Program-made: the position numbers and the translations under genes
NCBI GenBank assembly: GCA_040275305.1
Contig: JBEOJY010000033.1
Location: 17,955 to 81,954, forward strand
Source of the DNA: Bdellovibrionales bacterium
GTDB lineage: Bacteria; Pseudomonadota; Alphaproteobacteria; UBA9219
Direction: 5' to 3'
Length of the DNA: 64,000 nt
Notes under the pieces: generated by a model
The model's database searches: none
Told to the model about the DNA's origin: nothing
What the model saw: only the letters and a program-made list of their open reading frames with translations
Shown here: positions 42,944 through 58,131 of the stretch, one piece after another
How positions within the stretch are numbered: the first letter of the stretch is position 1
How the letters are laid out: every line of letters begins with the position of its first letter

Positions 42944-43026
42944 CTTTCCGCATTGTTTGTCTACGTAACCTCAAAGTTAAGCTTGGGAGTTACCATTATT
43001 TTTGTAATTTATTATGTGATTTATAT

Positions 43027-43100
43027 CCACCAGCCAAGCCATTGAAATAGCTGGTGGGTGCGACAGGGATTGAACCTGTGACCCCTACCATGTCAAGGTA
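43027..43100. repeat. attL: direct-repeat copy of the tRNA-Val 3' 49 nt plus about 25 bp of downstream sequence
   Basis: Positions 43052-43100 are identical to 58057-58105 (49/49). The flanking segments 43027-43051 and 58032-58056 match at about 21/25. Confidence 0.75.
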
Positions 43101-43277
43101 ATAACTCGTAATTTTCTTTCGCTTCCTTTTGCTTTCCTAACCTTACTAATATGTTATATATCAATGTGATTTCTTATTTCCGGTAAGGTAGATGTCTTGC
43201 CGTAAATCACCGTAATTTCCCTTTATCTGCTTCCTATGTGCTTCCTGTAGGGGCGCTACCTTCAGAAAGGAATCATA

Positions 43278-44525
43278 ATGGTAAGGCTCACCAAGACGCA
43301 TGTCGAGGGATTGAAACCGGGCGAACCGGACTATTTTGTTTGGGATGAGACTTTGCCAGGCTTTGGCGTTCGCGTGTGGCCTAGCGGCAAGAAGACCTAC
43401 ATCGCGCAATATCGGGCGGTAGGGCGAACGAGGCGGATCAAGATAGGCAATCACGGCGTTTTGACGGTCGAGGAAGCCCGCAAACAGGCAAAAGGCATAC
43501 TGGGCGACGTCGCGCGAGGCGAAGACCCGCAAGAGGATCGCCTGACTCGCCGCAAGGCGATGACAGTTTCGGAGCTTTGCGAAGCCTACCTCTATGCTGC
43601 GGAGCGCGGTCTTATCATGGGCAAGGGAGGCCGCGCGAAACGTGAATCGACTTTGGCGATTGACAAGGGGAGGATTGAACGGCACATCAAGCCCCTGCTG
43701 GGCACCAAGCTTGTGCGCGAACTCACACCTTCGGATATAGGACGTTTTATTCGAGACGTTGCGTCTGGCAAGACGGCGGGGGTAGTTAAAACTGACCTGG
43801 TGCGCGGGCAGGCTATCGTTAAAGGTGGAGCTGGGACGGCTTCACGTTGCGCGGCGTTTCTGGGAGGCATGTTGAGTTTTGCCGTCGCGGAAGGCGTGAT
43901 CGCGCATAATCCGGCGCGAGGCGTGAAGCGTCCGGCCTATGGTAAGCGAACAAGGCGCTTAAACGCTGAAGAATACTGTCGCCTTGGCGAAGCCCTGCGC
44001 GTGCTGGAACGCGAAGGGGAAAGCTTGCAAGCAATTAAAGCGGCGTGGCTTCTCGCCCTGACAGGGTGTCGCCTGAACGAAATCGTCGAGTTGAAATGGG
44101 CGGAGGTAGATGACGTCGGGCGTTGCCTTCGGCTTGAGGATTCAAAAGAAGGCGCGTCTGTGCGGCCTTTGGGGGCGCATGCCATGGAAATCCTGCGCAG
44201 CGTCGGGCGCAAAGACGACGCTTTGTTTGTGCTCGAAGCCGTGCGCGGAAAAGGCTCGTTCGGGGGCATGCCTCGCGCGTGGCGGCGGTTTGCGAAGCGC
44301 GCCGGGTTTGAGGATGTAACGCCCCACACGTTGCGCCACAGCTTCGCGAGCGTTTCGGGCGATCTTGGCTTTGCGGACAGCACCATCGCCGCATTGCTGG
44401 GACATTCAACCGGAAGTATGACTTCGCGTTATGTGCACAAGCTTGATGCCGTGTTAATCGCCGCCGCTGATAAGGTTGCTGAGGCTGTTTGGGGGATGAT
44501 GGAGGATGGGAAGAATAATGGTTAA
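43278..44525 (+). CDS. int: Tyrosine-type site-specific integrase (P4-like, DUF4102 arm-binding N-terminus)
   Basis: Has LKPGEPDYFVWDETLPGFGVRVWPSGKKTYIAQYR (DUF4102) and a C-terminal HTLRHSFAS...LLGHSTGSMTSRYVH catalytic domain. Confidence 0.85.
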   Translation: MVRLTKTHVEGLKPGEPDYFVWDETLPGFGVRVWPSGKKTYIAQYRAVGRTRRIKIGNHGVLTVEEARKQAKGILGDVARGEDPQEDRLTRRKAMTVSELCEAYLYAAERGLIMGKGGRAKRESTLAIDKGRIERHIKPLLGTKLVRELTPSDIGRFIRDVASGKTAGVVKTDLVRGQAIVKGGAGTASRCAAFLGGMLSFAVAEGVIAHNPARGVKRPAYGKRTRRLNAEEYCRLGEALRVLEREGESLQAIKAAWLLALTGCRLNEIVELKWAEVDDVGRCLRLEDSKEGASVRPLGAHAMEILRSVGRKDDALFVLEAVRGKGSFGGMPRAWRRFAKRAGFEDVTPHTLRHSFASVSGDLGFADSTIAALLGHSTGSMTSRYVHKLDAVLIAAADKVAEAVWGMMEDGKNNG

Positions 44526-44702
44526 TGCTTTTACGCAACATTTTGACAAATTACCATTATTTTTCAATGCCTCACGATGGAAATCAACAATTGAAATTTA
44601 GGACAAAATGTCCTACATTCAGCATACCTAGTTCCCGCACGCCGAATCGGCCCCGGATGGGGTTCTTGGCAGCAATCGCTAGCCTAGGCTGCGGGAATGC
44701 CT

Positions 44703-45311
44703 CTATCTAAATCTCCATAAGTTTGCGATCTTCGGTGCTATCATGCCGTGCCAGCGTGAGGCGTCTTTTTTACCGGAGTAGGTGCGAGCTATTGCACCGG
44801 TTACCATATCGGCAAGCTGTATCAGGTGGTCATTACGAGAGGAAAGAAAAGTAATTTTCTTAATCTGGCCGTCTGGTATCATCCGCCTAATATATTGTGC
44901 CAGTTGCCTTTTGAACTCCCTGTCTCCGCTTTCGTCAATTTTAATGTGCGCCTTGTCTAGCATATGAGTGTGCTGTGAAATAAGTTGCCGGACGAAATAG
45001 TTGTAAAAACTGTCATTGCTTGTCCTTAAATGCTGGCTGTAGATTTCAGACTTGCGGACAGCAAGCGCGTATATTGAATAGTCAAACGGCGCAACGGCGG
45101 TGAAAAAGGCGTCCCTGATTTCGGCGCGGCTGTTGCTAAATTTGAATTCAGGGTAGATTTTCCTTTCCGCTTGAAGCTTCTTAATCGCCGCACTGCACTT
45201 TTCGGCTTCATCAAATGCCTTGAACACAATCATGCAGACGACAAAGAACTGCGAAGACCCTTTTTGGATCTTGAAACCAGAATCGCCGCTTTCGTCTATG
45301 AGTATAAGCAT
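44703..45311 (-). CDS. DUF3800 family protein
   Basis: Has the MLILIDESGDSGF N-terminus and the ...QLADMVTGAI motif characteristic of DUF3800. Confidence 0.55.
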   Translation of the reverse strand: MLILIDESGDSGFKIQKGSSQFFVVCMIVFKAFDEAEKCSAAIKKLQAERKIYPEFKFSNSRAEIRDAFFTAVAPFDYSIYALAVRKSEIYSQHLRTSNDSFYNYFVRQLISQHTHMLDKAHIKIDESGDREFKRQLAQYIRRMIPDGQIKKITFLSSRNDHLIQLADMVTGAIARTYSGKKDASRWHGMIAPKIANLWRFR

Positions 45312-45322
45312 GGCCCTTCTTC

Positions 45323-45625
45323 ATGGTAAGGATGATTTTGCGGAACTTCTCTATTAATATGCGTGTGTATATCAAATACAAAGCGTTCACCACACATAGT
45401 TCCGTTTTTGTAATAATGCACTCTTTGGTGGGAGATCGCAGCGCGTATGCTTTGTGTGGAGCGACGATGGAAACAGCCTTGCGTTTAGGAAGGTTCTTCG
45501 GCATGTCGCCGGAATTCTGGATGAACGCGCAGGCGCATTATGACCTGTTGCTGGCGGAAGCGAAACTGAGCCGCTCCATTGCCCGTGAGGTAACACCTTA
45601 TGAGGGGGATTGCGTCCGGGGGTAA
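45323..45625 (+). pseudogene. HigA-like antitoxin remnant (C-terminal half of an XRE-type HTH)
   Basis: METALRLGRFFGMSPEFWMNAQAHYDLLLAE matches the HigA C-terminal consensus (ALRLaRyFGtSpEFWlNLQ). No N-terminal helix region and no higB partner are present. Confidence 0.35.
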
Positions 45626-45844
45626 AAGCCGATGATGGCAGCCATGAGCAAGAAAGCGTTTGAAAGCATTGCCGCGAGACTGCGCGAAGCCGTTGCACAC
45701 GCGCAAGAGGATGATCGCGCGGAGGCGAGGTTTTTTAGTGCATGAATATTGATGAGCATTGCTGGACAGGCTATGCTAATCTGTGATCGAAACCGTAGAT
45801 AATACGCTATCGTCTGAGTTTGTATGTTGGAAAAGGTCGCAAAA

Positions 45845-46303
45845 ATGAAACAACTTGTTCTTTGTTTGATTGTCACTTTATGTCTGTGCGGATGCGTTAC
45901 AACCAAGGATCGGATTAATCAGCTTGATAGTCAAATTCGTCAGCTGGAGGCGGAGCAACGTGCTAAGTTGCACAAGGAAATAGAATTGTATCGCAATGAA
46001 AAGAATTCAACATGTACATCAAAAAATCTTACGTACGCTGGTCTAAATATACACGCTTTTGAGCTTTCTAATGATAGAATAGATTCTACTAGTGATTATG
46101 ATTCAATCATAAAGAATGCCAATATGGCCCTTGAAGCGATCTTTGAACTTGCGGATTTAGCAAAGGAACGCAGGTGTTATAAAGATGCAGATAAACTATA
46201 CCGCCATGTCATTGAAAGATATGTTGGAGTTTACTATTCTGGCTTTCGCGACAGAGCAAGAATAGGCATTGATGACATAAGGGGATTACAAAAAATAAAA
46301 TAA
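45845..46303 (+). CDS. Hypothetical lipoprotein with a coiled-coil segment
   Basis: Has the lipobox LCLCGC and a heptad-like QLDSQIRQLEAEQRAKLHKEIELYRNEK. Confidence 0.45.
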   Translation: MKQLVLCLIVTLCLCGCVTTKDRINQLDSQIRQLEAEQRAKLHKEIELYRNEKNSTCTSKNLTYAGLNIHAFELSNDRIDSTSDYDSIIKNANMALEAIFELADLAKERRCYKDADKLYRHVIERYVGVYYSGFRDRARIGIDDIRGLQKIK

Positions 46304-46309
46304 AAAGCG

Positions 46310-47170
46310 ATGTGCAGCATGCCTATCAGTATAGATGAAGCAGTAACGGAAATTGTTGAAGCTTTACGTAAGTTACCTCCTCTGTTGGCTACGCATGATC
46401 CAAATTTGCGTAGTTCAAAGACAGGGTGCGATATAAAGATTACCGAAATGTTTGGTAGTTGGTGGCACAAACAGCATAAGGGCATGCCGCAAATTCCTGA
46501 TCCTGGTGAACAGGATTATGCGCCTTTCCACGATGCTGCTTGGGAGTTGGCACGTAGGGGAATTTTACGGGCAGGAAAAGCATTTCCTGGGCTTTATAGT
46601 TTCATAGGTGGTGAGGATATTGCTGGCAATGGTTACTCGCTGACTGAAATGGGTAGAGAGTGGGTCGCAAAATATGACCAGTTTGGGCATGTTCCTGTTG
46701 ATCCCGGTCGTTTTGCGGCGCTTATTGCACCTTATGCACAAAAATTTGGCGAAGCATTTATCCAGCGCGTCTCGGAAGCAGCCGGGTGCTATCGCACATG
46801 CAATTATCTGGCAACGTGCGCCATGGCCGGAGCCGCTTGCGAATCGATCCTTCTTGCGCTTGCGATCAAAAAACAAGGCGATGAAGAGGCGGTTTTGAAG
46901 GCATATCTTGGGCGTGATGGCCGCCAAAAACTCATTAAAAGCCTATCCGGAAATTTGAATGGACACATGCGGCAGGGTATTGAAACGGCAACACAGATAC
47001 TTTCGTATTGGCGTGACAACGCTTCGCATGGGCACGCTACGACTGTTAGCGAGTTTGCTGCGCACGACGCCCTCTCGCGATTGTTGCGATTTGCACAATT
47101 CGCTGATGGTAAATGGGAAGTTCTTACCGCGAGTGAGGCTGTGCAAGCGCCGAATAGCCAAGCTTTGTAA
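46310..47170 (+). CDS. Hypothetical protein (286 aa)
   Basis: Uninterrupted ORF with no recognised domain. Confidence 0.45.
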   Translation: MCSMPISIDEAVTEIVEALRKLPPLLATHDPNLRSSKTGCDIKITEMFGSWWHKQHKGMPQIPDPGEQDYAPFHDAAWELARRGILRAGKAFPGLYSFIGGEDIAGNGYSLTEMGREWVAKYDQFGHVPVDPGRFAALIAPYAQKFGEAFIQRVSEAAGCYRTCNYLATCAMAGAACESILLALAIKKQGDEEAVLKAYLGRDGRQKLIKSLSGNLNGHMRQGIETATQILSYWRDNASHGHATTVSEFAAHDALSRLLRFAQFADGKWEVLTASEAVQAPNSQAL

Positions 47171-47519
47171 GTCTGTATCCGAGTTGGCCATCATAACGAT
47201 CCGAACAAGAACCTTCCTCAATGAGCCCCAAGTCAACAAGCTTTGCAATCGTCTTCTTTGACGAACTTACGGCGTTTTTTGCTGGCGGCTCGAAAAGGGA
47301 TGTCGAATTCGACATTCTCTGGAGAACTTTCCTCTCACGTTCGTTCAAGCGTGGAAGGACGGGCCAGATGGACGATTCCGCAGCAGTCTGGTGAACCATG
47401 AAAAAAAATCCTTGAGCGTGAGGCATTGACACGGCCCTGCGAATATGGTCTAGTAACCGTGTTGCTATCTCACGATATTTTTTGGGGATCTCCATGCGCT
47501 TCGATGTTTTTCCCACCAC
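47124..47519 (-). CDS. Hypothetical small protein, possibly a winged-helix regulator
   Basis: TIAKLVDLGLIEEGS...YRLTKLG resembles a wHTH recognition helix and wing. It overlaps neighbouring ORFs at both ends. Confidence 0.3.
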   Translation of the reverse strand: MVGKTSKRMEIPKKYREIATRLLDHIRRAVSMPHAQGFFFMVHQTAAESSIWPVLPRLNERERKVLQRMSNSTSLFEPPAKNAVSSSKKTIAKLVDLGLIEEGSCSDRYDGQLGYRLTKLGYSALAQPHSR

Positions 47520-48060
47520 ATTTTCTCCTGCAGAGGTTGCTCAGTTTACCGATGTTTCAACTGATCTACAACGCGATTGGCGGCGGCGAGGAATTATAGA
47601 TAATAATGATGGATTTGGTGTGGTTTCACTTAGAGAAGCAGTTAGCATTTTCCTTACAAAAATGCTTTCAACAAACGGGTTTGGCCCAATGCAAGCTGCA
47701 ATTTTCACCCGCAGCATTGTTGAGCAGGTTCTTGCAAGGACACTGAATAGGCTTGAAGTGTGGGATGGGGAGTGGGACAATGTGCCAATAAAATCTACTG
47801 ATTTAAGATTAACCGCATTGTTATCTCAATATATTAGATGTAGTTCACTCAATATTAAAGACTACTCTATTTTCTTGTATGATAGAACAATAAAAATTTC
47901 AAATAATATCTCGCAAGAGCTTGTGTCTATTCAGAATCATGCAAATGGTTTGTCTGCGCATCCGATAGTTATACTAGATCACGTTGGCATAGCTGACGAG
48001 TTGTTAAGACGACTTGGGAGTAGATATTTAGCAAGGTTTGTTTTTGAAAATTCTTCATAA
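47482..48060 (+). CDS. Hypothetical protein with an N-terminal MerR-like HTH
   Basis: FSPAEVAQFTDVSTDLQRDWRRRGII is a MerR-type HTH pattern. The C-terminal 130 aa lie in a low-GC segment (47760-48060). Confidence 0.4.
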   Translation: MGISMRFDVFPTTFSPAEVAQFTDVSTDLQRDWRRRGIIDNNDGFGVVSLREAVSIFLTKMLSTNGFGPMQAAIFTRSIVEQVLARTLNRLEVWDGEWDNVPIKSTDLRLTALLSQYIRCSSLNIKDYSIFLYDRTIKISNNISQELVSIQNHANGLSAHPIVILDHVGIADELLRRLGSRYLARFVFENSS

Positions 48061-48119
48061 GAAAAATACAAGCAAATTAGCGAACGCGACTAAAACTTCA
48101 GATACTTGGAGCCAATCGA

Positions 48120-48398
48120 ATGCCAGAATCTTTTCAACCCGCTTCGGCGGGAACGTTTAGCGCTTGCCTTCCGGCACCCTCCCACAAACCCCGCCTACGC
48201 CGTGCGGAAGTGCCCGGATATCTACTTAGCTATCACGGCATCCAAATTGCCGTAACAACGCTTGCAAAACTCGCGTCCATCGGTGGCGGGCCGCCGTTTT
48301 GCAAATTTGGCCGTCGTGTCCTTTATGAGCAGGACGCTTTAGATGCTTGGGTGCATCAAAAGCTTTCACTGCCCAGATTTAACACAAGCAAAACGTAA
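48120..48398 (+). CDS. alpA: AlpA/excisionase-like HTH_17 regulator
   Basis: [54 protein letters not shown] fits the AlpA-family pattern. The position between int and the primase is typical for a satellite regulator. Confidence 0.55.
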
Positions 48399-48420
48399 CA
48401 CTAAAAGAGGAGCGTTTACA

Positions 48421-48624
48421 ATGTCAGGAAACTATCTAGCCCCGACTGTTCTTGCCGCAATGAGCACACCACACCAGACGAGCGACATTATGCATGTGGT
48501 CGTATTTCATGATAATTGGTGCGGCGTTTACAAAAACAAGCCCTGCAACTGCAACCCTGACATCAAGATTCTGTCCGAGGCTGAATATCAGAAGCGCTTT
48601 GGAAAGCACCATCCTAAGCTTTAA
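48421..48624 (+). CDS. Small hypothetical Cys-rich protein (67 aa)
   Basis: An AAGAGGAG Shine-Dalgarno lies 9 nt before the ATG. The sequence contains HDNWCGVYKNKPCNCNP. Confidence 0.4.
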   Translation: MSGNYLAPTVLAAMSTPHQTSDIMHVVVFHDNWCGVYKNKPCNCNPDIKILSEAEYQKRFGKHHPKL

Positions 48625-48652
48625 TTTCCACTAACATCTAAGGAGAAGCTCT

Positions 48653-51373
48653 ATGTCTCAGATCGCCCGCAAGGCGGCAACGCCTATGCTTTGCCTGACG
48701 AAAATTACTTCGGACCAAACGCTTGCGAAAGAATTCACCTTGGGGCCGAATGGAATTCTGTCGAAAAAGTCATGCGGGCAGCTAGTTGAGGGGGCAGCCG
48801 ATAGGCTTGAAATCGCAAATTTAATTGAGTTTGCGGCTATTCTTAAAGAGCTAACATCCGAGCAAGCTCTGACGTTTGGAGTTACAAAATATCTGCGCGC
48901 GCGAGTAAGGCCTAAAAGTTGCCTTAGCTCTGCGAATAGCAATGAGGCTATCGTTGCAAGGACGCGCGAGCATTTCAGCTTTATGCCGCAGGCTGGCGTC
49001 ATGATGTTCGATTACGATCAGCAGCCGAAAGTGGATGTACTCGATTCGGATGAACTGCGTCGGCGCATTCTGCGTGCCGTTCCAGAACTAACATCCGCGC
49101 CGATGCTTTGGCGTCCTTCGGCGTCAAGCTATATCGAAACGGAGGATGGACGAACAATTCTAGGGTTGGGTGGGCAACGACTGTATGTATCCGTCGCAGA
49201 CGCCTCGAAAATCCCCTTTGCAGGCAGTGCTATAGTCACGAGGTTATGGGCTGCTGGGTTTGGGTACGTCAAAATAAGCGGCGCGGGGAAAACGTTGCTG
49301 CGAACGATTGTTGATGATTCCGTATGGCAACCTGAAAGGCTGGACTTCGCGGGAGTGCCTAAGTTGGGGCAGGGCTTGCGGCGCAGCAACTTTGCGGAAA
49401 AATTTTGGAACAAATCCTCAGAACCGTTCGACTTATCTACAATCCAGCTTTCTGATGAAACGGAAAGCGAAGCTGAGAAGGCAAAAAATGCCGCAAAATC
49501 AGCCGCAGCGCCGGAATGCGCGCGCGTCCGCGGGGAGTGGATCGAAAAACAAGCGCAGCAAATTATGAATAAAGCTTCTATTTCTTACGAAGAGGCGCGG
49601 AAACAAGCCGAGCAAGCTGCGGAACAAAATACTCTAGGCCCTGACTTCATCCTACATACTCAGGACGGGAACAAGGTTTGCGTCCGTGAGTTGCTTGACA
49701 ATCCAGACCAATGGCATGAGACCCGCTTCGCCGATCCGTTTGAACCCAGCTACACTAATGATTCCCGCATCGCAGTTGCCTATCTGAAATGCTCCAAGCC
49801 CTGCATTTTCAGCCATGCGCACGGCGGCATCACCTATCATCTTTCTCGGGGGAAGCGTAGAGTTCAAATCGCAGAGGGACAACGCGCGCACGCCGTCGAT
49901 GAAGTTCTGCAAAGACTGCGAGAAAATGTAGAATTATACGACTACGGCTCAAGCGTTGCGCGTGTTGCTGGCGGGAAAATGGAAATCGTTACGCCTCCAT
50001 GGCTGGAAGACCATCTTTCACGGCGATTTGAATTTTTCAGCACGGCCAGAAGAAAGAATGGCGAGATTTATGAAAAATCCATCAATCCGCCGCAAAAAAT
50101 TGTCGAAGCGATTCTCGCGAAAGATGGGGAGAGGCAATTCCCCCGCCTGACTGCCGTGATTACCGCGCCGACGATGTGGGTGGACGGTGCAGTGCTTGAT
50201 CGCGAAGGGTATGACGCGCAAACAGGCCAGTTGCTTGTGAGAACAGGCGAGGATTTTTTCGCCGAAATCCCGCACACACCTTCGGTCGATCAAGCTATCG
50301 CGGCGCTTCGCAAACTTTGGGAGCCAATTAGCAAATTTCCGTTTGTCTGGGACGTTGATCGCGCCGTTGCGCTTGCGGCCTTGCTATCCACCTGCGTGCG
50401 GCCTGCGCTTCCGACTTGTCCGGGGTTTGCATTTGATGCGCCAGCGGCTGGGACTGGCAAAACTCTTTTGGCAAAGGTTGTCGGCGCGCTGGGAACAGGG
50501 AGAGAGCCGGATATTTTGCCTCCGGCGAGCGATCGCGATGATAGTGAAGCGCGGAAGCGGTTATTCGCGGCTCTTCGTGAAGGTCGTTCCGTCATTCTTT
50601 GGGACAACGTGAGTGGCAAGCTTGGCTTCCCAGCGTTGGACGCTTTTTTGACTGCGAAGGACTTTGCCGACCGGATACTTGGCGTCTCGCGTGTTGAAGC
50701 GCTTCCCAATCGTGCGCTGTTTCTGACTACCGGGAACAATTTGCGGATCGTTGGCGACACTTGCCGTCGCATCCTTGTGTCGCGGCTGGACGCGCGGGTT
50801 GAGCAACCCTACGCCCGAAAATTTGACTTTTGCCCTTTGGGCTATGCGCTGGAAAATCGGCAGGAACTTGTCGCGGCGGCGCTGACTTTCATTCGCGCCT
50901 GGTTCGCTTCTGGCGCGCCACATAGCGCACAGGGAAGCACAGCGTCTTTTGAAGACTGGGATCGCCTTGTCCGCCAGCCTATCGTTTGGATTGCGCAGCA
51001 TGTGCGGGACTGGCTACCGCTTGCCGATCCGTTAGAGGCTGTCAATCGTGCCTATCAAGGCGATGAAGAAATGGCGAAGTTGGAGGCGCTTGGAGCGGCC
51101 TGGTATGATGTTTTCAAGGAAGAATCTGCGACGCTAACCGAGGCCGAGCAGAAAACACGTTACTCCTGCGGTGATAAAAGCAAGCTGGAATCAAACTTGC
51201 GCGCGGCAATGCTTGCGATTGCGGGAGCGAATGGCTACGACGACCGGATCAATTCACGTATTCTTGGACATTTTTTGTGCGCCAATCGTGAGAGGCGTAC
51301 AGAACTCTTCCATTTCCTGCAAGACGGGAGAACCCACGGGCGGACGCGCTGGCGGGTGGTGGCTGACATTTAA
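48653..51373 (+). CDS. Large replication protein (primase/helicase-like P-loop NTPase) of the island
   Basis: A 906-aa protein with an AAGGAG Shine-Dalgarno. The Walker A motif FDAPAAGTGKTLLAKVV lies in the C-terminal third. Its size and its position after alpA are typical of P4-alpha or PICI Pri-Rep-type proteins. Confidence 0.55.
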   Translation: MSQIARKAATPMLCLTKITSDQTLAKEFTLGPNGILSKKSCGQLVEGAADRLEIANLIEFAAILKELTSEQALTFGVTKYLRARVRPKSCLSSANSNEAIVARTREHFSFMPQAGVMMFDYDQQPKVDVLDSDELRRRILRAVPELTSAPMLWRPSASSYIETEDGRTILGLGGQRLYVSVADASKIPFAGSAIVTRLWAAGFGYVKISGAGKTLLRTIVDDSVWQPERLDFAGVPKLGQGLRRSNFAEKFWNKSSEPFDLSTIQLSDETESEAEKAKNAAKSAAAPECARVRGEWIEKQAQQIMNKASISYEEARKQAEQAAEQNTLGPDFILHTQDGNKVCVRELLDNPDQWHETRFADPFEPSYTNDSRIAVAYLKCSKPCIFSHAHGGITYHLSRGKRRVQIAEGQRAHAVDEVLQRLRENVELYDYGSSVARVAGGKMEIVTPPWLEDHLSRRFEFFSTARRKNGEIYEKSINPPQKIVEAILAKDGERQFPRLTAVITAPTMWVDGAVLDREGYDAQTGQLLVRTGEDFFAEIPHTPSVDQAIAALRKLWEPISKFPFVWDVDRAVALAALLSTCVRPALPTCPGFAFDAPAAGTGKTLLAKVVGALGTGREPDILPPASDRDDSEARKRLFAALREGRSVILWDNVSGKLGFPALDAFLTAKDFADRILGVSRVEALPNRALFLTTGNNLRIVGDTCRRILVSRLDARVEQPYARKFDFCPLGYALENRQELVAAALTFIRAWFASGAPHSAQGSTASFEDWDRLVRQPIVWIAQHVRDWLPLADPLEAVNRAYQGDEEMAKLEALGAAWYDVFKEESATLTEAEQKTRYSCGDKSKLESNLRAAMLAIAGANGYDDRINSRILGHFLCANRERRTELFHFLQDGRTHGRTRWRVVADI

Positions 51374-51378
51374 CTCCT

Positions 51379-51607: not shown

Positions 51608-51739
51608 GATCCAAATTAAATTGGTTTTCCACATTTATCATTCTTACTTTAGATTTCTTATTGTTACCTGATTTAGTCAAGTTTGTAGTTTTTTACACTT
51701 TTTTCGGGGTGATTGCGGGGTGATCACTTTGCTTCACGT

Positions 51740-52324: not shown

Positions 52325-52553
52325 ATCTTCTCCTTGTCGCACTTAGTGGTAAACATTTCAACTACCTGTCACTTGAGTCAATCCCTGACATTACAGCCAA
52401 TTCATGAAAAAATATACAGTGCAACCACAAAAACAATTTCATAATTAATGATTAGCGATGATTAGTAAGAAATATACATTAACATACAATTTTATTTTTG
52501 CTTTAGCAATCACTATACTATGCTGAAATAAACTTTCTTTTTGGCCATACTGC

Positions 52554-53765
52554 ATGTTCAAGGCTTTCAGCCGCATTCTTCAGCGAGAGTCCAAGTCGGC
52601 GTTGTCTTCTTTTTTTGCGCCGATTTTCGGCGTTCCTTCATCGGCTTCCGGCGTTGCGGTGACGGCTGAAACGGCGCTGCGCAATTCGACGGTTTACGGG
52701 TGTGTGAAGGTTATATCCGAAGCCGTTGCGCAGCTTCCTTTGCGCCTTTACCGGAGGCTTCCCGACGGCGGGAAAGAACGCGCTACCGATCATCCGCTCG
52801 ACTCCCTACTAAACGAGCAGCCGAATGACTGGACATCCGCTTTTGATTTCAGATTGTTCATGCAGTCGTCGCTATGCCTGCATGGGAATGCCTTCGCATT
52901 TGTGAACAGGCTGGGCGGCAAAGTCGTGGAGCTGATTTCTATTCCGCCTTCCTGCGTCACGGTCGAAGTTGATCCGGTTACGATGGAGCCTGCTTATCGC
53001 GTCGCTTCGGCCAACGGAGAAAATCGTATTTATGGGCGACAGGAAATCCTTCACCTCAAAACGTTAGGCACGTTGCCGCAAATCGGCAAATCGCCTGTCG
53101 CGCTTATGAGCGAGGCTATCGGCGTTGCGATGGCTATGGAAGAACACGCCGCGCGCATTTTTTCTTCTGGGGCTAGGCCCGGCGGCGTTCTCAAATACGG
53201 AAAAACACTAACGGACAATGCTCTTAAGCAGTTGCGAGTAAGCCTTGAAACAGCGCATGTCGGTGGCGGCAACGCCGGGCGGACGATGATTCTCGAAGAC
53301 GGAATGACATTCGAGCCGCTTCAGTTTTCAAGTGTGGATATTCAATTTCTCGAAATGCGCAGGCATCAGGTCGCTGAAATTGCGCGAGCCTTCCGCGTTC
53401 CCCTCCATATGTTGCAAGACCTCGAACGAACCACGCATAGCAACGCCGAAAGCCTTGGACAGCAATTCTTATCCCTAACCCTGTTGCCTTGGCTGAAATG
53501 TTGGGAAGGCGGCATTCGCTCTTCGTTGCTGTCTCCCGAAGAGAGAGGTGTTTATTACGCGGAGTTCCTTACAGACGACCTAGCCCGCGCCGATCTTGCT
53601 GCACGTTTCGACGCCTACACCAAAGCGGTAACGAACGGGATTCTTTCCCCGAACGAGGTGCGCACTGCAGAAAATCGTACTCCTTATCTTGGTGGGGATC
53701 AATTCAGGCTTCCGCTGAATACGACACCCGCTGGAAAGGGGGGCGTTGCGCATGAATCGCTATAA
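52554..53765 (+). CDS. Phage portal protein, HK97 family
   Basis: The 403-aa protein has the HK97-type portal length and composition, with a conserved central core. Confidence 0.8.
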   Translation: MFKAFSRILQRESKSALSSFFAPIFGVPSSASGVAVTAETALRNSTVYGCVKVISEAVAQLPLRLYRRLPDGGKERATDHPLDSLLNEQPNDWTSAFDFRLFMQSSLCLHGNAFAFVNRLGGKVVELISIPPSCVTVEVDPVTMEPAYRVASANGENRIYGRQEILHLKTLGTLPQIGKSPVALMSEAIGVAMAMEEHAARIFSSGARPGGVLKYGKTLTDNALKQLRVSLETAHVGGGNAGRTMILEDGMTFEPLQFSSVDIQFLEMRRHQVAEIARAFRVPLHMLQDLERTTHSNAESLGQQFLSLTLLPWLKCWEGGIRSSLLSPEERGVYYAEFLTDDLARADLAARFDAYTKAVTNGILSPNEVRTAENRTPYLGGDQFRLPLNTTPAGKGGVAHESL

Positions 53766-55419
53766 CGTTAAAGCGCAACTCTCCGCGCATGAATCTGGCG
53801 TTTTTGCTGGATATGCCAGCGTGTTTGATGGTGAACCTGACAGTTACGGGGATGTCATTGCTCCGGGAGCTTTCGCGAAAAGTCTTGCTTCACACAGGTG
53901 CAAGGGAACCTTGCCAGTCTTACTGTGGCAACATGACCCAGGAGAGCCGATAGGTGTTTGGCTTGATCTCCGCGAAGATGTAACGGGGCTTTCCGTTACG
54001 GGCCGCCTCGTTCTTGAAACGCAGCGTGGGCGCGAAGCCTATGCGCTTTTGAAAGCCGGGGCCTTGAACGGCCTTTCGATTGGCTACCGCACACGTGCTT
54101 CTGAACGTCGAGCGGGCGGCGCACGGGTTTTGCAGGAACTTGAACTGATCGAAATATCACTTGTAACACTCCCGGCAGCATCAAAAGCGAGGGTTACAAG
54201 TATTAAGGCGGCTTCAGCCGTTTCACCCGCCGCCGATGAAGCGGCCAACAAGAGGAGGCAACCCATGGCCATAGCATTTAAGGCTCCAACAGTTCAAAAT
54301 GAAGAGGGGAAAGACCTTGAACCGCGTATTCTTTCTCTCGAAGAATCAGTCGTGAACATCGACACGCGCCTGAAGGCCGTTGAAGAAGGTGTTGGCAAAG
54401 TTGCCAAGTCAGCCGACCGCATTGAACAGAAGCTCAATCGACCGGGTTTCACGCCGGAGATACACCACTCTACCGAGAAATGCGAAAACAAAGCCTTCGC
54501 AGATTTTTTGCGGCGCGGAAGGGAAGCTTTACAGGTTGATGAAGTCAAGGCTTTGGTTGTTTCCCCGGATACGGCGGGAGGATATCTTGCTCCAAGCGAA
54601 TTTGTCGCGCAAGTTATCAAGGGGATTATTTCAGTTTCTCCCGTCAGACGAGCCGCGAAAGTAGGTACAACATCTTTAGGTGCTGTGACTTTGCCGAGAC
54701 GAACCGCTACGCCGACCGCGTCATGGGTTGGGGAGCTCACTGCGCGAAGTGGCACTGGCTCGACTTATGGACAGGCCGAGATTCAAGTTCATGAAATGGC
54801 TTGTTATGTGGATGTCTCCCTGCGGTTGCTTGAAGACGCAGCTGTCAATGTGGAAGCAGAAGTCGCTTCCGATCTTGCAGAAGAATTTGGCCGTCTCGAA
54901 GGAGCCTCATTCGTTTCCGGCAGTGGTATGAACCAGCCGTTTGGCATTTGTTCTGATGCCAATGTGAATTATACGCCGACAGGTAATGCGTCCGGGCTTC
55001 CTTCGTCCAATCCCGCTGATCCACTTATCTCTCTGATATACCTTCTGCCAGAGTTTTACCGAAACTCTGGCGTATGGATGATGAACGGTACAACGCTTGC
55101 AGCTTTGCGCAAGATAAAGACTGGTGATGGTCATTATCTTTGGCAACCGTCTTTTCAGGTAGGCCAACCAGAGACCCTGCTTGGGCGTCCGGTGATTGAA
55201 GCACCTGATATGCCGAATTTCGGTGCTGGCACCACACCGATCATCTTCGGAGATTTTTCCCGTGCTTATCGTATTTTCGATCACAAAAGCGTTTCGCTTT
55301 TGCGCGATCCATACAGTCAGGCCGCAAGCGGACTTGTGCGTTTTCATGCGCGAAGACGCGTTGGCGCTGCCGTGGTTTTGCCTGAAGCGATACGCAAGCT
55401 TAAATGCGCAACATCATAG
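53746..55419 (+). CDS. Fusion of an HK97-family prohead protease and a major capsid protein
   Basis: The N-terminal 170 aa or so form an S78-type protease (GYASVFDGEPDSYGDVIAPGAF...GLSIGY). The C-terminal 330 aa or so form an HK97-fold capsid protein (SGSGMNQPFGI..., with a coiled linker). Confidence 0.8.
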   Translation: MRMNRYNVKAQLSAHESGVFAGYASVFDGEPDSYGDVIAPGAFAKSLASHRCKGTLPVLLWQHDPGEPIGVWLDLREDVTGLSVTGRLVLETQRGREAYALLKAGALNGLSIGYRTRASERRAGGARVLQELELIEISLVTLPAASKARVTSIKAASAVSPAADEAANKRRQPMAIAFKAPTVQNEEGKDLEPRILSLEESVVNIDTRLKAVEEGVGKVAKSADRIEQKLNRPGFTPEIHHSTEKCENKAFADFLRRGREALQVDEVKALVVSPDTAGGYLAPSEFVAQVIKGIISVSPVRRAAKVGTTSLGAVTLPRRTATPTASWVGELTARSGTGSTYGQAEIQVHEMACYVDVSLRLLEDAAVNVEAEVASDLAEEFGRLEGASFVSGSGMNQPFGICSDANVNYTPTGNASGLPSSNPADPLISLIYLLPEFYRNSGVWMMNGTTLAALRKIKTGDGHYLWQPSFQVGQPETLLGRPVIEAPDMPNFGAGTTPIIFGDFSRAYRIFDHKSVSLLRDPYSQAASGLVRFHARRRVGAAVVLPEAIRKLKCATS

Positions 55420-55754
55420 ATCGCATAATGCCATGGTCGATTCCTAGACATTGCCCTGCGGGACATCCTCCTTTCACTGGGATGCGCTGTCCTGCCTGCG
55501 CCACGGTCAGAGATAAAAATAGGCCTAATGCTAGGCAGCGTGGCTATACGAAGCAGTGGCAATGCGAAGCGAAGTCCTTCCTTGGCACACATTCTTTTTG
55601 CCGCGCTTGCGGTGCGCGGGCCGCTGTCGTGGATCATGTTATCCCTCACAAGGGTAACATGGACTTGTTTTGGGATCGCACGAATTGGCAACCGCTTTGT
55701 GCGACTTGCCACAATCGTAAAACAGTTTCTCAAGATGGTGGTTTCGGAAGGTGA
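55404..55754 (+). CDS. HNH endonuclease
   Basis: The Cys/His pattern CPACA...CRACG...DHVIPH...CATCHNRK matches HNH. Confidence 0.7.
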   Translation: MRNIIDRIMPWSIPRHCPAGHPPFTGMRCPACATVRDKNRPNARQRGYTKQWQCEAKSFLGTHSFCRACGARAAVVDHVIPHKGNMDLFWDRTNWQPLCATCHNRKTVSQDGGFGR

Positions 55755-55868
55755 ATGAGTCGTTCAGAAGGAGGGAGGGGGGGGGGGGGATTGAAAATTT
55801 CTTCTGACAAAGATCGGTACCGTATGGGAGGTCTTGCGCACGTTTTTTGGGAAATTGGAGTTTTTTAA

Positions 55869-56279
55869 ATGAAGGGGCGTAAACCTAATCTTGTAGCTTT
55901 AGTTAACCCTGCGTCTTCTGAGACATTCAACGCTGCCCCTTTATGGCTTACGCGGCAAGCGAGAGAGGAATGGGAGCGCGTCGCGCCCTGCTTACGCAAT
56001 CGCAACCTTTTCACTGCGGATACGGTGGCAATGCTCGAACATTATTGCCTCGCGGTCGGACAAATCCGAGAAACTGAGGCGCTTATGCGCAGGGACGGGC
56101 GCTTGATAGTGACGACGAAAGGTACAATCCCTCATCCGGCCTTTCGTGTGCAATGCGCTGCCATGCGCGAAGCCCGCTTGTTGGCCGCCGAGCTTGGTCT
56201 TTCACCTCATCGCAGCGCCATCCATGGGCCTAAGGGATCGAACAAAGATGACGCATGGGACACCGATCTTCTCGCCTGA
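55869..56279 (+). CDS. Terminase small subunit, P27 family
   Basis: A 136-aa protein. EHYCLAVGQIRETEALMRRDGRLI is typical of P27 TerS. Confidence 0.7.
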   Translation: MKGRKPNLVALVNPASSETFNAAPLWLTRQAREEWERVAPCLRNRNLFTADTVAMLEHYCLAVGQIRETEALMRRDGRLIVTTKGTIPHPAFRVQCAAMREARLLAAELGLSPHRSAIHGPKGSNKDDAWDTDLLA

Positions 56280-57858
56280 CCCGACGTTGTACGACGATCC
56301 GACAGGGCGTGCCGACAGAATCTGCCGTTTCGTCCATCGTTTACGCCTTTGGGAAGGTGATTTCGCTGGAAAGCCATTTACTCTCAACCGTTTTCAGGAA
56401 GCCATAATCCGCCGAATTTATGGCCCGACGAATGCCGACGGGACACGAGCTGTGCGGATCGCTTGCATATGGATTCCGCGAGGCAATGCGAAAACAACAC
56501 TTGCCGCAGCGCTTGCCCTTGCGCATTTCTTGGGGCCAGAAGCGGAAGCAGGCGGGCAAGTCGTTTTGGCCGCCGCTGATCGCGAAAATGCGGGTATTGC
56601 ATTCAATTCTGCTCATCAATTTGCGTTGCAAGACGAAGCGCTTGTCTCGCGCATTAGGGCGGCAGAAAGCCGAAAATCCCTTACGCATCCAAAAACCAAA
56701 AGTATCTTAAAAGCCATATCATCTGAAGCTTATTCTAAACATGGCCTTAACGTCTCTTTCTTTCTCGCCGACGAAATCCATGCTTGGCCAACAAGTGAAG
56801 GGCGCAAGCTTTTCAAGACTGTTACAGATTCCATGGTAAAGCGGGCGCATCCGCTTAGTGTAGTCATTTCGACCGCAGGAGAAGGGCAAGGCGGCCTTGC
56901 ATGGGACATGTGGAAATATTCACACCGTGTGGCGATGGGTGAAATAGAAGACCCGTCCTTCGCTCCCATTATCTTCGCAGCAGATTCGGGAGATTGGCGT
57001 AATGAAGAAGCTTGGTGCGTTGCCAATCCTGCTATTGCAGCGGGTTTTTGTTCCATCGACGAATTGAGGATTAAGGCCCGTCGGATCGAACATTTTCCTT
57101 CCGAGATAGCTGATTTCCGGCGCTATCACCTAAATCAGTGGCAGGAAGGCACGGCGCAGCCGTGGCTTGATCCTGCCTTGTACGACACCGCGCAAGCCAT
57201 GACTCCGCTTTGCGAATTGACAGGCCGTAAATGCTGGATTGGGATCGACCTTTCCAGCGTCGAAGACTTGACCGCCGTTGTCGCCGTCTTTCCCGATGGA
57301 GAGGGAGAAAATCGCTGTTACGACGTTTTGCCGATGTTTTTCTTGCCGGAAGCGAATATTGCCCGCAAGGGCGAAAAGGACAGGGCCGATTATGTGCGCT
57401 GGGCGCAAGAAGGCTTCCTAAAACTCACGCCCGGCAACGTGGTGGATCATGCTGCGGTAGTGGAATATGTCGCGATGCTTGGCGAGCGGTACGGTGTACA
57501 GGAAATCGCAATCGACCGATGGAATTCTACGGCGGTGAATACAGGCCTGCAAGAACGCGGGTTTGCAATAAATCAGTTTGGGCAAGGTTTCGCGAGCATG
57601 GCCGCTCCCGTAAGGGAGTTAAAACGGGCGATCCTTTCAGGACGCTTTCGGCATGGCGGAAATCCTTTGCTGCGCCTTTGCTTCAACAACGTAGTCGCTG
57701 AAAAAGACGCGGCCGAAAACGAGAAATTCACCAAGGAAAAAGCTAGGGGGCGCATAGACGGGGCCGTTGCTTCGACAATGGCTATCGGGCGTATCCTTTC
57801 CGGCGAAGCAAGCGTTTCTCCATATGAAAGCCGCGAAGGCGGTTTTCTTTTTCTTTAG
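56248..57858 (+). CDS. Terminase large subunit
   Basis: Has an ATPase Walker A-like IPRGNAKTTLAAALA and a C-terminal nuclease domain. It overlaps the terS end. Confidence 0.8.
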   Translation: MTHGTPIFSPDPTLYDDPTGRADRICRFVHRLRLWEGDFAGKPFTLNRFQEAIIRRIYGPTNADGTRAVRIACIWIPRGNAKTTLAAALALAHFLGPEAEAGGQVVLAAADRENAGIAFNSAHQFALQDEALVSRIRAAESRKSLTHPKTKSILKAISSEAYSKHGLNVSFFLADEIHAWPTSEGRKLFKTVTDSMVKRAHPLSVVISTAGEGQGGLAWDMWKYSHRVAMGEIEDPSFAPIIFAADSGDWRNEEAWCVANPAIAAGFCSIDELRIKARRIEHFPSEIADFRRYHLNQWQEGTAQPWLDPALYDTAQAMTPLCELTGRKCWIGIDLSSVEDLTAVVAVFPDGEGENRCYDVLPMFFLPEANIARKGEKDRADYVRWAQEGFLKLTPGNVVDHAAVVEYVAMLGERYGVQEIAIDRWNSTAVNTGLQERGFAINQFGQGFASMAAPVRELKRAILSGRFRHGGNPLLRLCFNNVVAEKDAAENEKFTKEKARGRIDGAVASTMAIGRILSGEASVSPYESREGGFLFL

Positions 57859-58056
57859 GAGTTTAGCGCTGTGCGCCTTCCGGCAAAAGAAGCGCGGGAG
57901 GACAATCTTTGCTTGAATAAAGTGACGCAGAAACGGCTTATACAAATTCGCCAGCAAAGCTTGATGGAGCCGTCGCGCTCAATCGATTCTGCTTCCTATG
58001 TGCTTCCTGTTTGATTGTCTTGCCTTCACCGCCACCAGCTAAGTCTTTGAAATAGC

Positions 58057-58131
58057 TGGTGGGTGCGACAGGGATTGAACCTGTGACCCCTACCATGTCA
58101 AGGTAGTGCTCTCCCGCTGAGCTACGCACCC
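58057..58131 (-). tRNA. tRNA-Val (anticodon GAC). Its 3' end faces the island and is the integration target.
   Basis: The reverse complement is GGGTGCGTAGCTCAGCGGGAGAGCACTACCTTGACATGGTAGGGGTCACAGGTTCAATCCCTGTCGCACCCACCA. It folds as a cloverleaf with a 7-bp acceptor stem, an anticodon loop TTGACAT and a TTCAATC T-loop. Confidence 0.85.

Follow-up and report, generated by a model that had tools for sequence, protein, structure and literature searches.

Structure of the Island and Its Boundaries

We analyzed a 64,000-nucleotide stretch of DNA (positions 17,955 to 81,954 of contig JBEOJY010000033.1, assembly GCA_040275305.1), hereafter called the window, which at positions 43027–58131 contains an integrative island with its own capsid and packaging genes. 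A preliminary description of this DNA had interpreted the island as a tail-less satellite of the kind known as cf-PICIs, phage-inducible chromosomal islands that form capsids. Judging from sequence comparisons, it is a connector-less member of an apparently undescribed alphaproteobacterial family of cf-PICI-like elements (L001, L002 and so on are our designations for the loci and contigs compared). The ends of the island are formed by the following features:

43027–43100 (no strand), left attachment site (attL): displaced tRNA-Val 3′ fragment (43052–43100) with the original downstream hairpin (43027–43051); repeat search and sequence
43226–43248 (no strand), arm-type repeat, P′ side: TCTGCTTCCTATGTGCTTCCTGT, perfect 23-nt repeat (repeat search)
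57988–58010 (no strand), arm-type repeat, P side: identical to 43226–43248
58032–58131 (minus), right attachment site (attR) with the intact tRNA-Val(GAC): tRNA at 58057–58131, core at 58057–58105; ARAGORN and repeat search
58032–58056, attR hairpin: element-borne copy of the downstream hairpin

The tRNA-Val(GAC) gene revealed by ARAGORN is intact, lies on the minus strand and is the only tRNA gene of the window. The repeat search detected a direct repeat of 74 nt (43027–43100 and 58032–58105) whose copies are 96% identical and spaced by 15,005 bp. A perfect core of 49 nt (43052–43100, the same as 58057–58105) corresponds to the 3′ part of tRNA-Val, while the other 25 nt, with three mismatches, correspond to the hairpin downstream of the tRNA. 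Since the perfect 49-bp repeat coincides with the tRNA 3′ end, chance can be excluded. A copy of the tRNA 3′ end and of its terminator thus belongs to the element itself, as is the case for tRNA-integrating elements, and the displaced fragment of the original tRNA-Val sits at the integrase end. The element of about 15 kb, with repeats of about 74 bp and a perfect 49-bp core, that had been described previously was thus found again on re-examination.

In addition, just inside both ends of the element we revealed a perfect 23-nt direct repeat, TCTGCTTCCTATGTGCTTCCTGT, composed of two TGCTTCCT half-sites, which was absent from the preliminary description. Near-identical paired repeats are present around the att core in the relatives L006 and L010, and analogous pairs in L013, L024 and L044. 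The TCTGCTTCCTATGTGCTTCCTGT repeats are candidate sites for the arm-binding domain of the integrase, which fits the Arm-DNA-bind_3 domain of this protein.

The sequence of the element is supported by Logan contigs that are 100% identical to it over 43071–51409 and 51580–55789. The junction between the capsid and HNH genes is backed by a second assembly, Logan contig L194 from run SRR28882998, which may share reads with the metagenome-assembled genome (MAG) studied here.

Head and Packaging Module

The right part of the island contains a compact module of five genes encoding the portal, a fusion of the prohead protease with the major capsid protein (MCP), an HNH endonuclease and the small (TerS) and large (TerL) terminase subunits:

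52554–53765 (plus), HK97-family portal, 403 aa: Pfam Phage_portal PF04860, 1.7e-103, full length
53746–55419 (plus), S78 prohead protease::HK97-fold MCP fusion, 557 aa: Peptidase_S78 4.4e-31, Phage_capsid 4.6e-85; coiled-coil linker
55404–55754 (plus), HNH endonuclease (packaging cofactor): Pfam HNH 6.3e-08, phrog_144 5.3e-24; likely start 55428 (tblastn alignment start)
55755–55868 (no strand), hnh–terS intergenic region, candidate cos/terminase recognition site: conserved blocks in an alignment of 10 elements
55869–56279 (plus), TerS, P27 family, 136 aa: Pfam Terminase_4 2e-18, phrog_83 6.2e-23
56248–57858 (plus), TerL: Pfam TerL_ATPase 4.1e-20, TerL_nuclease 3.9e-39, phrog_9 1.1e-130

All five genes had been predicted earlier, and both Pfam and PHROGs confirmed them; the structural and packaging proteins cover their Pfam models nearly end to end. 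The protease::MCP fusion retains the residues that are invariant in an alignment of 22 sequences (A1). The likely start of HNH is located 8 nt past the capsid stop codon (55419), and the junction sequence, including that of Logan contig L194, leaves no gene between them. The open reading frame (ORF) of TerL opens at 56146, with homologues aligning from 56248, and a terminator-like hairpin is located at 57826–57847. The portal is 69–71% and TerL 81–82% identical to the corresponding proteins of the islands L005 and L006.

The best PDB match of the portal was 8CEZ ("Portal protein," 5.6e-49), compared with 5.1e-16 for the portal of the Rhodobacter capsulatus gene transfer agent (RcGTA). We take 8CEZ to be the HK97 portal, as HK97 capsid is found under the neighbouring codes 8CFA and 8FQK. 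In the PDB comparison the capsid domain was closer to the RcGTA capsid 6TB9 (E 1.7e-45) than to 9GYI (E 1.3e-23), which is the capsid of cf-PICI EcCIEDL933 (10.1101/2025.02.11.637232). Because the capsid is nearer to RcGTA than to EcCIEDL933, the only cf-PICI capsid in this comparison, it is suggested that this capsid lineage arose separately and is independent of the three cf-PICI lineages described.

The hnh–terS intergenic region contains blocks (GGGAGGGGG, GAATT, GCGCGCAA, and GGAAATTGGGAGTTTT) that are kept across 10 elements, although the flanking proteins are only 50–58% identical. HNH, cos and terS are adjacent in HK97-type phages, and by analogy this region may be the cos/terminase site of the island. 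It should be mentioned that a run of 13 G residues (55781–55793) lies inside the conserved block; the relatives have a shorter GGGAGGGGG there, and Logan contig L194 stops exactly in this run. The run could belong to the cos site, be a tract of variable length or mark a spot prone to sequencing errors.

Absence of Neck, Tail, and Lysis Genes

Neither tail, head–tail connector nor lysis genes were found in the element with Pfam and PHROGs. Custom hidden Markov models (HMMs) were made from adaptor, head-closure, decoration-like, tail-completion, gp10-like, tail assembly chaperone (TAC) and putative major-tail genes found in the family itself, and gave nothing in six frames of the whole window, the best E value being 0.12. 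Similarly, tblastn with the adaptors and head-closure proteins of the family revealed nothing below E 0.1 in the window. This six-frame HMM search also detected no remnants of connector or tail pseudogenes, and there were no GTA-like or tail genes within the 64 kb. All genes that the nearest relatives carry in addition, namely the 128-aa gene, adaptor, head-closure and post-TerL genes, are absent, and attR directly follows TerL. The absence of recognisable tail, lysis and connector genes, as claimed in the preliminary description, was therefore borne out by all three kinds of search (Pfam, PHROGs and the six-frame custom HMMs), though a very divergent holin may be present among the small unassigned ORFs.

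A Family of Related Islands in Alphaproteobacteria

In total, 629 relatives of the protease::MCP fusion were detected. A pattern scan found relatives in 298 species-representative genomes, the best 80 loci all belonging to Alphaproteobacteria, and in 351 IMG/VR contigs, many of which are 14–17 kb long; these census counts are approximate since the collections overlap (e.g., L103 is the same as L173). The locus census was based on tblastn and HMM matches, and ORF calling often picked antisense ORFs in GC-rich loci. The gene order portal – MCP – variable cassette – HNH – TerS – TerL was kept in all 162 related loci examined. The hosts of the family include rhizobia, methanotrophs, Rhodobacterales and Azospirillum. 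Among the cultured carriers are Methylosinus sp. Ce-a6 (L018), whose island contains the 128-aa gene and lacks an adaptor, the connector-bearing Cereibacter azotoformans KA25 (L013) and Lutibaculum baratangense AMV1 (L007), and Pararhodospirillum oryzae NBRC 107573 (L064).

The close clade, with TerL 62–82% identical, consists of tail-less islands of about 14–16 kb with the same gene order and a minus-strand tRNA gene 100–600 bp after TerL. Direct repeats of 33–55 bp derived from tRNA 3′ ends flank L005, L013, L022, and L024. The closest annotated relatives are L005, located inside a 165-kb contig, where ordinary host genes directly follow the island, and L006, a 16-kb contig (MCP 69–70% and TerL 81–82% identical to those of the window element). 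Both are islands of about 15 kb without tail or lysis genes, organized as integrase – small ORFs – replication – portal – protease::MCP – 128-aa gene – Phage_connect_1 – Phage_HCP – HNH – TerS – TerL – small gene.

We compared the window element with these and other connector-bearing relatives (L005, L006, Lutibaculum baratangense L007, Stappia L009, and Cereibacter azotoformans L013). All of them have the same order of genes, with TerL adjoining a minus-strand tRNA, and, like the window element, have paired arm repeats of this kind and the conserved hnh–terS block. The level of identity is 47–68% for the integrase, 46–55% for the excisionase-like protein, 64–71% for the portal, 53–70% for protease::MCP, 47–59% for HNH, 47–58% for TerS and 78–82% for TerL. 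Unlike the window element, they contain between the capsid gene and HNH a decoration-like gene of 128 aa, an adaptor (Phage_connect_1) and in many cases a head-closure gene (Phage_HCP), as well as a gene of 120–160 aa after TerL. Their replication module comprises two DUF927 genes instead of the 906-aa primase, and most of them are inserted in tRNA-Arg, as opposed to tRNA-Val. The layout of the window element is otherwise that of the family: portal – S78::MCP – HNH – conserved block – TerS – TerL, with a tRNA beside TerL and the integrase at the far end.

Comparison with 50,697 phage records revealed much more distant matches. The best identity was 38% for TerL and 44% for MCP, and the protease and capsid are separate genes there, whereas identity to other islands reaches 70–82%; at the DNA level the head module had no match in these records. 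It had been proposed that best matches to a degraded prophage would speak against the satellite interpretation; the relatives turned out to be islands of about 15 kb, with identity to phages not exceeding 44%.

Taken together, these sequences appear to represent a large, apparently undescribed family of compact capsid-encoding integrative islands of Alphaproteobacteria. We found no reports of substance on PICIs or cf-PICIs from Alphaproteobacteria in the literature searched. The island had been regarded as a notable alphaproteobacterial example; it is novel in the sense that no earlier report from this class was found, but it is not rare, being one atypical member of a very large family.

Two observations concern other members of the family. 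The 128-aa gene, which follows the capsid gene in most relatives (e.g., L086:8064–8450) and is absent from the window element, has a weak match to Bbp16 (E 0.005), the capsid cement protein of Bordetella phage BPP-1; this gene may encode a capsid decoration protein. Distant members (L066:2991–20202 from Cucumibacter marinus; L021, L059, L084–L086, and others) are integrase-to-tRNA elements of about 17 kb, with a tape-measure gene right after TerL together with tail assembly chaperone, tail-completion gp17 and HK97-gp10-like genes in an unusual order. In these 17-kb members we saw nothing that obviously encodes distal tail, baseplate or lysis functions.

Connector-Less Members of the Family

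To classify the members by the content of the variable cassette, we used 142 loci containing both MCP and TerL:

8 of 142: none of the cassette genes (window, L024, L025, L030, L048, L101, L102, L103)
11 of 142: the 128-aa gene only
68 of 142: adaptor with or without the head-closure gene
55 of 142: also tail-related genes (tape measure after TerL, tail-completion gp17, HK97 gp10-like, chaperones)

Judged by gene content, the family thus grades from elements with a partial tail down to head-only ones. We observed the minimal state in at least four sequence lineages, represented by the window element, by L101–L103 (MCP 54% and TerL 78–80% identical to those of the window), by L025, and by L024 together with L030. 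The last two have a common TerL lineage distinct from that of the window element, while their portal and MCP genes are unrelated.

Two diverged connector-less elements, L101 and L102, were used to estimate selection. With the number of synonymous substitutions per site (dS) at 0.48–0.83, the ratio of nonsynonymous to synonymous substitutions (dN/dS) was 0.03–0.17 in all five head and packaging genes, comparable to the constraint in the connector-bearing pair L005/L006 (dN/dS 0.07–0.14). If the ancestor of L101 and L102 was already connector-less, these values point to selection acting on head and packaging genes without connectors.

Integrase, Replication, and Accessory Genes

The left part of the island contains the integrase, accessory and regulatory genes, and the replication module:

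43278–44525 (plus), P4-type tyrosine integrase, 415 aa: Pfam Arm-DNA-bind_3 2.2e-16, Phage_integrase 5.4e-20, phrog_1 5.5e-57
44703–45311 (minus), DUF3800 protein, 202 aa: Pfam DUF3800 5.2e-13, PADLOC PDC-M04A 3.1e-14
45323–45625 (plus), HigA-like antitoxin fragment: phrog_1381 "plasmid antitoxin with HTH domain" 6.7e-07, residues 46–87 only
45824–46303 (plus), lipoprotein-like ORF, 159 aa, lipobox LCGC: weak match to the Cor superinfection-exclusion family, E 0.0012 (PHROG)
46310–47170 (plus), 286-aa ORF: no match in Pfam, PHROG or PADLOC
47124–47399 (minus), leftward small ORF, 91 aa on Logan contig L001: weak winged-helix match Rio2_N, E 0.005
47494–48060 (plus), 188/192-aa ORF upstream of the excisionase gene: no Pfam or PHROG family match
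48120–48398 (plus), RdfS/AlpA-like winged-helix excisionase or activator, 92 aa: opens the replication operon; HTH_17 8e-4
48343–48624 (plus), 93-aa ORF downstream of the excisionase gene: from the ORF list, no Pfam, PHROG or PADLOC match
48653–51373 (plus), primase-helicase, 906 aa: phrog_16593 DNA primase 3.9e-55, residues 15–368
51740–52342 (minus), lipoprotein-like ORF, 200 aa: within an insert of low GC content (39%) that separates the replication module from the head module, no family match

The integrase is 67–68% identical to those of L005 and L006, and the 92-aa protein 52–55% identical to the product of the same-position gene in these islands. A profile of eight orthologues of the 92-aa regulator matches RdfS (PDB 8DGL) with E 6e-8. 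The P4-type integrase and the order of a small ORF and the 906-aa primase described previously could be retained; the gene preceding the latter two in the operon, called alpA there, is better described as that of an RdfS-like excisionase. A variable gene of unassigned role downstream of alpA, the position taken here by the 93-aa ORF, has also been described in cf-PICIs (10.1101/2025.02.11.637232).

The C-terminal half of the primase-helicase matches phrog_29234 (2.7e-78) and phrog_19930, polymerase/primase (6e-20), and its sequence contains the Walker A motif GTGKT. Neither a Pfam domain nor a PDB relative was found for the 906-aa protein, and its designation as a primase comes from PHROG. More than 100 homologues with 35–50% identity were revealed in AlpA/integrase islands of beta- and gammaproteobacteria that lack capsid genes (e.g., L002–L004), and the protein looks like a member of an unannotated replicase family of integrative elements. 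Since its homologues occur in capsid-less islands, the replication module is best seen as a swapped cassette that is uninformative about the type of element, and an attempt to classify the island by its primase was rejected for this reason. The neighbours of the homologues include defence-like cargo (PIN toxins, restriction-enzyme fragments and a DUF499/DUF1156 cluster).

Homologues of the 188/192-aa ORF occupy the same position in L101, L102, L109, and L015 (tblastn identity 27–39%). The 91-aa ORF diverges from this rightward ORF and, from its position, is a candidate repressor of a divergent switch. AlphaFold2 models built from single sequences were unusable both for the 286-aa ORF (pLDDT 36.6) and for the 188-aa ORF (pLDDT 37.3). 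In the promoter scan 18 sites were counted, compared with 12.9 ± 3.7 for shuffled sequences, and the terminator scan showed no excess over shuffled sequence; we treat both as weak hints.

The HigA-like ORF, which matches only in its C-terminal part, is probably a remnant. In the accessory stretch 44703–45625 it lies beside the DUF3800 gene, a PADLOC defence candidate (PDC-M04A), so that the latter may be anti-phage cargo with a decayed toxin–antitoxin neighbour. Finally, the two ORFs with lipoboxes (45824–46303 and 51740–52342) may encode exclusion factors.

Host and Chromosomal Locus

The island is flanked by housekeeping genes, uvrC on one side and wbaP, rnd, and scpAB on the other. The named neighbours of UvrC (64–70% identity) are almost all MAGs labelled "Alphaproteobacteria bacterium" or Rhodospirillaceae. 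Because both the neighbours of UvrC and the island family are alphaproteobacterial, the host is most likely an uncultured alphaproteobacterium. The NCBI label of the source MAG, "Bdellovibrionales bacterium," is probably wrong.

The uvrC–wbaP interval (42365–43026 and 58132–58233 in the window) is a variable spot, as judged from the relatives L192 and L193. In the relative with 89% identical UvrC it is occupied by a 4.6-kb ATP-grasp/glycosyltransferase block with no tRNA-Val, while in the one with 91% identity a TIR-domain gene lies beside uvrC. A clean empty att site was not found in these two loci, which hold different cargo and contain no tRNA-Val.

Proposed Life Cycle and Alternative Explanations

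Given the boundaries of the island, its gene content, its place in the family, the absence of neck, tail and lysis genes and the selection on head genes in connector-less relatives, we lean, with somewhat better than even confidence, toward a functional minimal capsid-forming satellite that borrows the neck, tail and lysis functions from a helper phage. Induction, replication, capsid size, cos cutting and the use of helper neck and tail can be envisaged as follows. The P4-type integrase would keep the element in the 3′ end of tRNA-Val, with arm sites on both sides of the core. Upon induction, the RdfS/AlpA-like excisionase or activator would bring about excision and expression of the excisionase–orf93–primase operon, and the excised element would replicate as a circle. 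The late operon would then provide the portal and the protease::capsid fusion, which is predicted to assemble and cleave itself, forming a small head of the HK97 type whose size suits 15 kb. The conserved hnh–terS site would be cut by HNH, TerS and TerL, which would fill the head with DNA of the element only. Since no adaptor, head-closure, tail or lysis gene is encoded, the helper would have to supply neck, tail and lysis: its adaptor/stopper proteins and tail would complete the filled heads, and its lysis would release the particles. Adaptor and stopper proteins are added once packaging has filled the head with DNA, and lambda heads can receive them in trans.

Several points weigh against this scheme. 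Those cf-PICIs that have been characterised need their own adaptor and connector, which set the identity of the captured tail (10.1101/2025.02.11.637232), so that a connector-less head may be non-infectious. The nearest relatives by MCP, portal and TerL (the L005/L006 group, 69–82% identity) all bear connectors, and therefore the loss in the window element is derived; no close connector-less sister that would show the persistence of this lineage was found among the loci compared. Connector-less loci are a scattered minority, and recurrent dead-end deletions would yield the same pattern. Furthermore, no helper phage was observed and the window contains no prophage, the element contains no LexA box of the alphaproteobacterial type (GTTC-N7-GTTC), neither an excised circle nor packaged DNA was seen, and element-sized contigs had no terminal overlaps. 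The regulator is weakly assigned, since its match to HTH_17 (20 bits) is below the Pfam cutoff, and it showed neither a profile match to PF05930 nor pairwise BLASTP similarity to PF05930 AlpA proteins.

A broader hypothesis can be offered only tentatively, as we consider it less probable than its opposite. According to it, the family is a fourth, independently evolved GTA/HK97-related lineage of capsid-forming satellites in Alphaproteobacteria, forming a reduction series (partial tail, adaptor with stopper, adaptor only, head-only) whose head-only members are functional and take the whole neck and tail of the helper, the helper adaptor docking on the satellite portal. On this view "tail piracy" would be widened to "neck piracy," with adaptor genes dispensable for capsid-forming satellites.

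The most serious alternative, which we judge unlikely but still of appreciable weight, is that the island is a crippled derivative of a connector-bearing island. It would have lost the block between capsid and hnh together with the post-TerL gene, form no infectious particles and be heading to decay, although integration, excision, replication and perhaps head formation would still be possible. The nearest relatives indeed carry the 128-aa gene, adaptor and HCP exactly where the window element has the 8-nt gap. The requirement for adaptor and connector in the studied cf-PICIs (10.1101/2025.02.11.637232) agrees with this explanation, as do the low share of connector-less loci (about 6–13% of the family, phylogenetically scattered) and some decay in the accessory region, seen in the HigA-like fragment. 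On the other hand, each of the five head and packaging genes is intact and full length, as are the genes for the integrase and the primase, the att core and both arm repeats are perfect, and no remnants of connectors are left. The diverged connector-less pair is under purifying selection as strong as that in connector-bearing elements, and in L024 and L030 the minimal layout occurs as well, there with portal/MCP and TerL of unrelated lineages.

Compared to a helper-dependent minimal satellite, a split system seems improbable. In this case the neck and tail would come from a fixed chromosomal source in the same host (an RcGTA-type cluster, another satellite or a prophage remnant), and the island would exploit a domesticated particle or work together with it. 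GTA clusters are common among Alphaproteobacteria, the RcGTA capsid is the best solved relative of the island capsid, a GTA-like cluster is among the top "phage" matches, and distant family members contain GTA-gp10-type tail assembly chaperone and tape-measure genes. But GTA-like or tail genes are present nowhere in the window, the portal is far nearer to 8CEZ than to the RcGTA portal, and the island's own integrase, att sites, replication module and patchy distribution are typical of a mobile element.

An even smaller probability can be assigned to a degraded remnant of a full temperate prophage with deleted tail and lysis modules. The structural genes all belong to ordinary HK97-type families, and distant members of the capsid family carry tape-measure, tail-completion and chaperone genes. 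Against this, the compact layout of about 15 kb is common to dozens of independent relatives across genera, running from integrase to tRNA with host genes immediately outside; TerS and TerL are at the far end from portal and MCP, beside att, which is a non-standard order for prophages; identity to deposited phages is at most 44%; and tail pseudogenes were not detected.

The least probable proposal is that tail-less DNA-filled capsids are themselves the transfer or storage form (released on lysis and taken up in another way, or having a non-transfer role): the element has everything for filled heads and nothing for tails, but most family members retain an adaptor gene, so that tail attachment matters in the family, in studied phages, heads without stopper proteins tend to lose DNA, and we know of no mechanism for DNA delivery from a tail-less HK97-type head into a Gram-negative cell. 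It should be mentioned that cf-PICIs do release tail-less capsids when the helper is absent (10.1101/2025.02.11.637232), which speaks for such a form.

Significance of the Connector-Less State

Capsid-forming satellites were reportedly first described in 2022–2023 from Gammaproteobacteria and Firmicutes, and their adaptor and connector proteins are thought to permit tail capture, even across species. The islands studied here appear to constitute a very large uncharacterised alphaproteobacterial family with a cf-PICI-like lifestyle and an independent capsid lineage close to gene transfer agents, in which a minimal form recurs, with adaptor genes dropped and head genes apparently still under selection. 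If this minimal form is functional, the minimal set of a capsid-forming satellite would be five structural and packaging genes, helper neck proteins would be able to complete foreign heads, and the family would offer a natural series for studying the reduction from phage to satellite. The finding also bears on annotation, since such islands are listed in IMG/VR as "viral genomes" of about 15 kb, and current cf-PICI detection by published rules would probably miss them.

Comparison With Known Systems

Several types of mobile elements were considered and rejected. An intact or defective temperate prophage does not fit, since there are no tail or lysis genes or remnants, the gene order is non-standard and the relatives are equally compact. 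Classical PICIs, including Staphylococcus aureus pathogenicity islands (SaPIs), use the helper capsid, while portal, MCP and TerL are all encoded in our element. No major capsid gene is encoded by the marine virion-encapsidated integrative mobile elements (VEIMEs; PMC9618062).

Satellite P4 and P4-like elements resemble the island in that their P4-type integrase is located at a tRNA gene, in having a large primase-helicase and in the dependence, proposed for the island, on a helper that provides virion parts. Unlike the island, P4 has no capsid, portal or terminase genes and remodels the helper capsid by means of Sid and Psu. A P4-like satellite was rejected because of the island's own capsid module and because no PHROG or Pfam match to sid, psu, delta, or epsilon functions was obtained.

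The small regulator resembles RdfS of Mesorhizobium ICEMlSymR7A (8DGL), likewise a small winged-helix protein located beside mobile-element functions in Alphaproteobacteria. RdfS comes from a conjugative element, while the regulator of the island belongs to a phage-related one, where a role as excisionase is suggested by this resemblance.

RcGTA provides the nearest solved capsid (6TB9) and, like the island, belongs to the alphaproteobacterial HK97-type head genes. RcGTA and other GTA clusters have no integrase, att or replication module, all three of which are present in the window element. GTAs also contain an adaptor, a stopper and a full tail in the order TerL–portal–protease–MCP–neck–tail, are passed on vertically and package random host DNA, whereas the island carries HNH, a P27-type TerS and a conserved cos-like site. 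A GTA of the RcGTA type was therefore rejected on the basis of the integrase, att repeats, primase-helicase and HNH/TerS genes and the absence of neck and tail.

Among the GTA-like sequences, L195 (MW091529.1, "Bacteriophage sp. 103231," from sewage, 18 kb) was deposited as a partial phage genome. It has an RcGTA-like layout (packaging protein, portal, protease, capsid, connector, head closure, major tail, tape measure, peptidase and large glycoside hydrolase) followed by efflux genes. This record probably represents DNA packaged by a GTA, or chromosomal DNA, and not a phage. With its standard GTA-like layout, it was rejected as a relative of the island in gene order.

The cf-PICIs of Firmicutes (de Sousa et al., 2023) have the protease and capsid in one gene, like the island, and share the capsid-forming, tail-less strategy (PMC10085698). 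They belong to a different phylum and contain adaptor and connector genes; the likeness is drawn from their description only.

The cf-PICIs of Gammaproteobacteria (with EcCIEDL933, of 15.4 kb, as the prototype; Alqurainy et al., 2022/2023; He et al., 2025) are similar to the window element in many respects. Both have a size of about 15 kb, an integrase and att sites, a small regulator (in the island, probably of the winged-helix type) followed by a primase/replicase, an HK97-type capsid, protease and portal, and the hnh–terS–terL order; both lack tail and lysis genes, and their packaging proteins are far from those of sequenced phages. The window element differs in that adaptor and connector genes are absent, the protease and capsid are fused, the portal precedes the capsid, the regulator is RdfS-like and not a PF05930 AlpA, the 906-aa replicase belongs to an unrelated family, the capsid is only distantly related, and the host is an alphaproteobacterium.

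The published features of cf-PICIs can be compared with the island one after another. Their size is 10–18 kb (10.1101/2025.02.11.637232); the island, of 15,005 bp, has a 49-bp core at the 3′ end of tRNA-Val and a P4-type integrase. In cf-PICIs an AlpA-type regulator precedes the primase/replicase module; in the island the weakly assigned 92-aa gene, a small ORF and the primase-helicase stand in the corresponding order, the regulator matching RdfS in its profile. They have no lysis genes and no complete tail (PMC10085698; 10.1101/2022.09.08.507074; 10.1101/2025.02.11.637232), and none were found here with Pfam, PHROGs and the family HMMs. In proteobacterial cf-PICIs the morphogenesis genes come first and are followed by hnh–terS–terL (10.1101/2022.09.08.507074); the island possesses its own capsid, protease and portal in the order portal–MCP–HNH–TerS–TerL. 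Their packaging proteins are likewise distant from those of sequenced phages (10.1101/2022.09.08.507074). Synteny with published cf-PICIs, the comparison proposed in the preliminary description, thus holds for hnh–terS–terL placed after the morphogenesis genes and breaks down at the adaptor and connector.

The core components of cf-PICIs include an adaptor and a connector (PMC10085698; 10.1101/2025.02.11.637232), whereas in the island the likely HNH start follows the capsid stop after no more than 8 nt. The lack of connectors, which had been counted as a point of agreement with cf-PICIs, is in fact a departure from them, as the published definitions list both components as core; since these are defining components, the window element is no cf-PICI by the published definitions. 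SatelliteFinder asks for at least 9 of 11 components for a call and forbids the cf-PICI portal for a PICI (PMC10085698). By these rules as described, neither a cfPICI nor a PICI call would be likely for the element.

Of the proposed layout combining a self-made capsid with tail theft, the tRNA-integrated, tail-less and lysis-less structure with its own capsid and packaging genes has held up, and the membership in cf-PICIs has not. In terms of gene content, the alphaproteobacterial family matches the published features of cf-PICIs, and the window element all of them except the adaptor and connector. Thus, the island seems to work like a cf-PICI while standing outside the group as presently defined.

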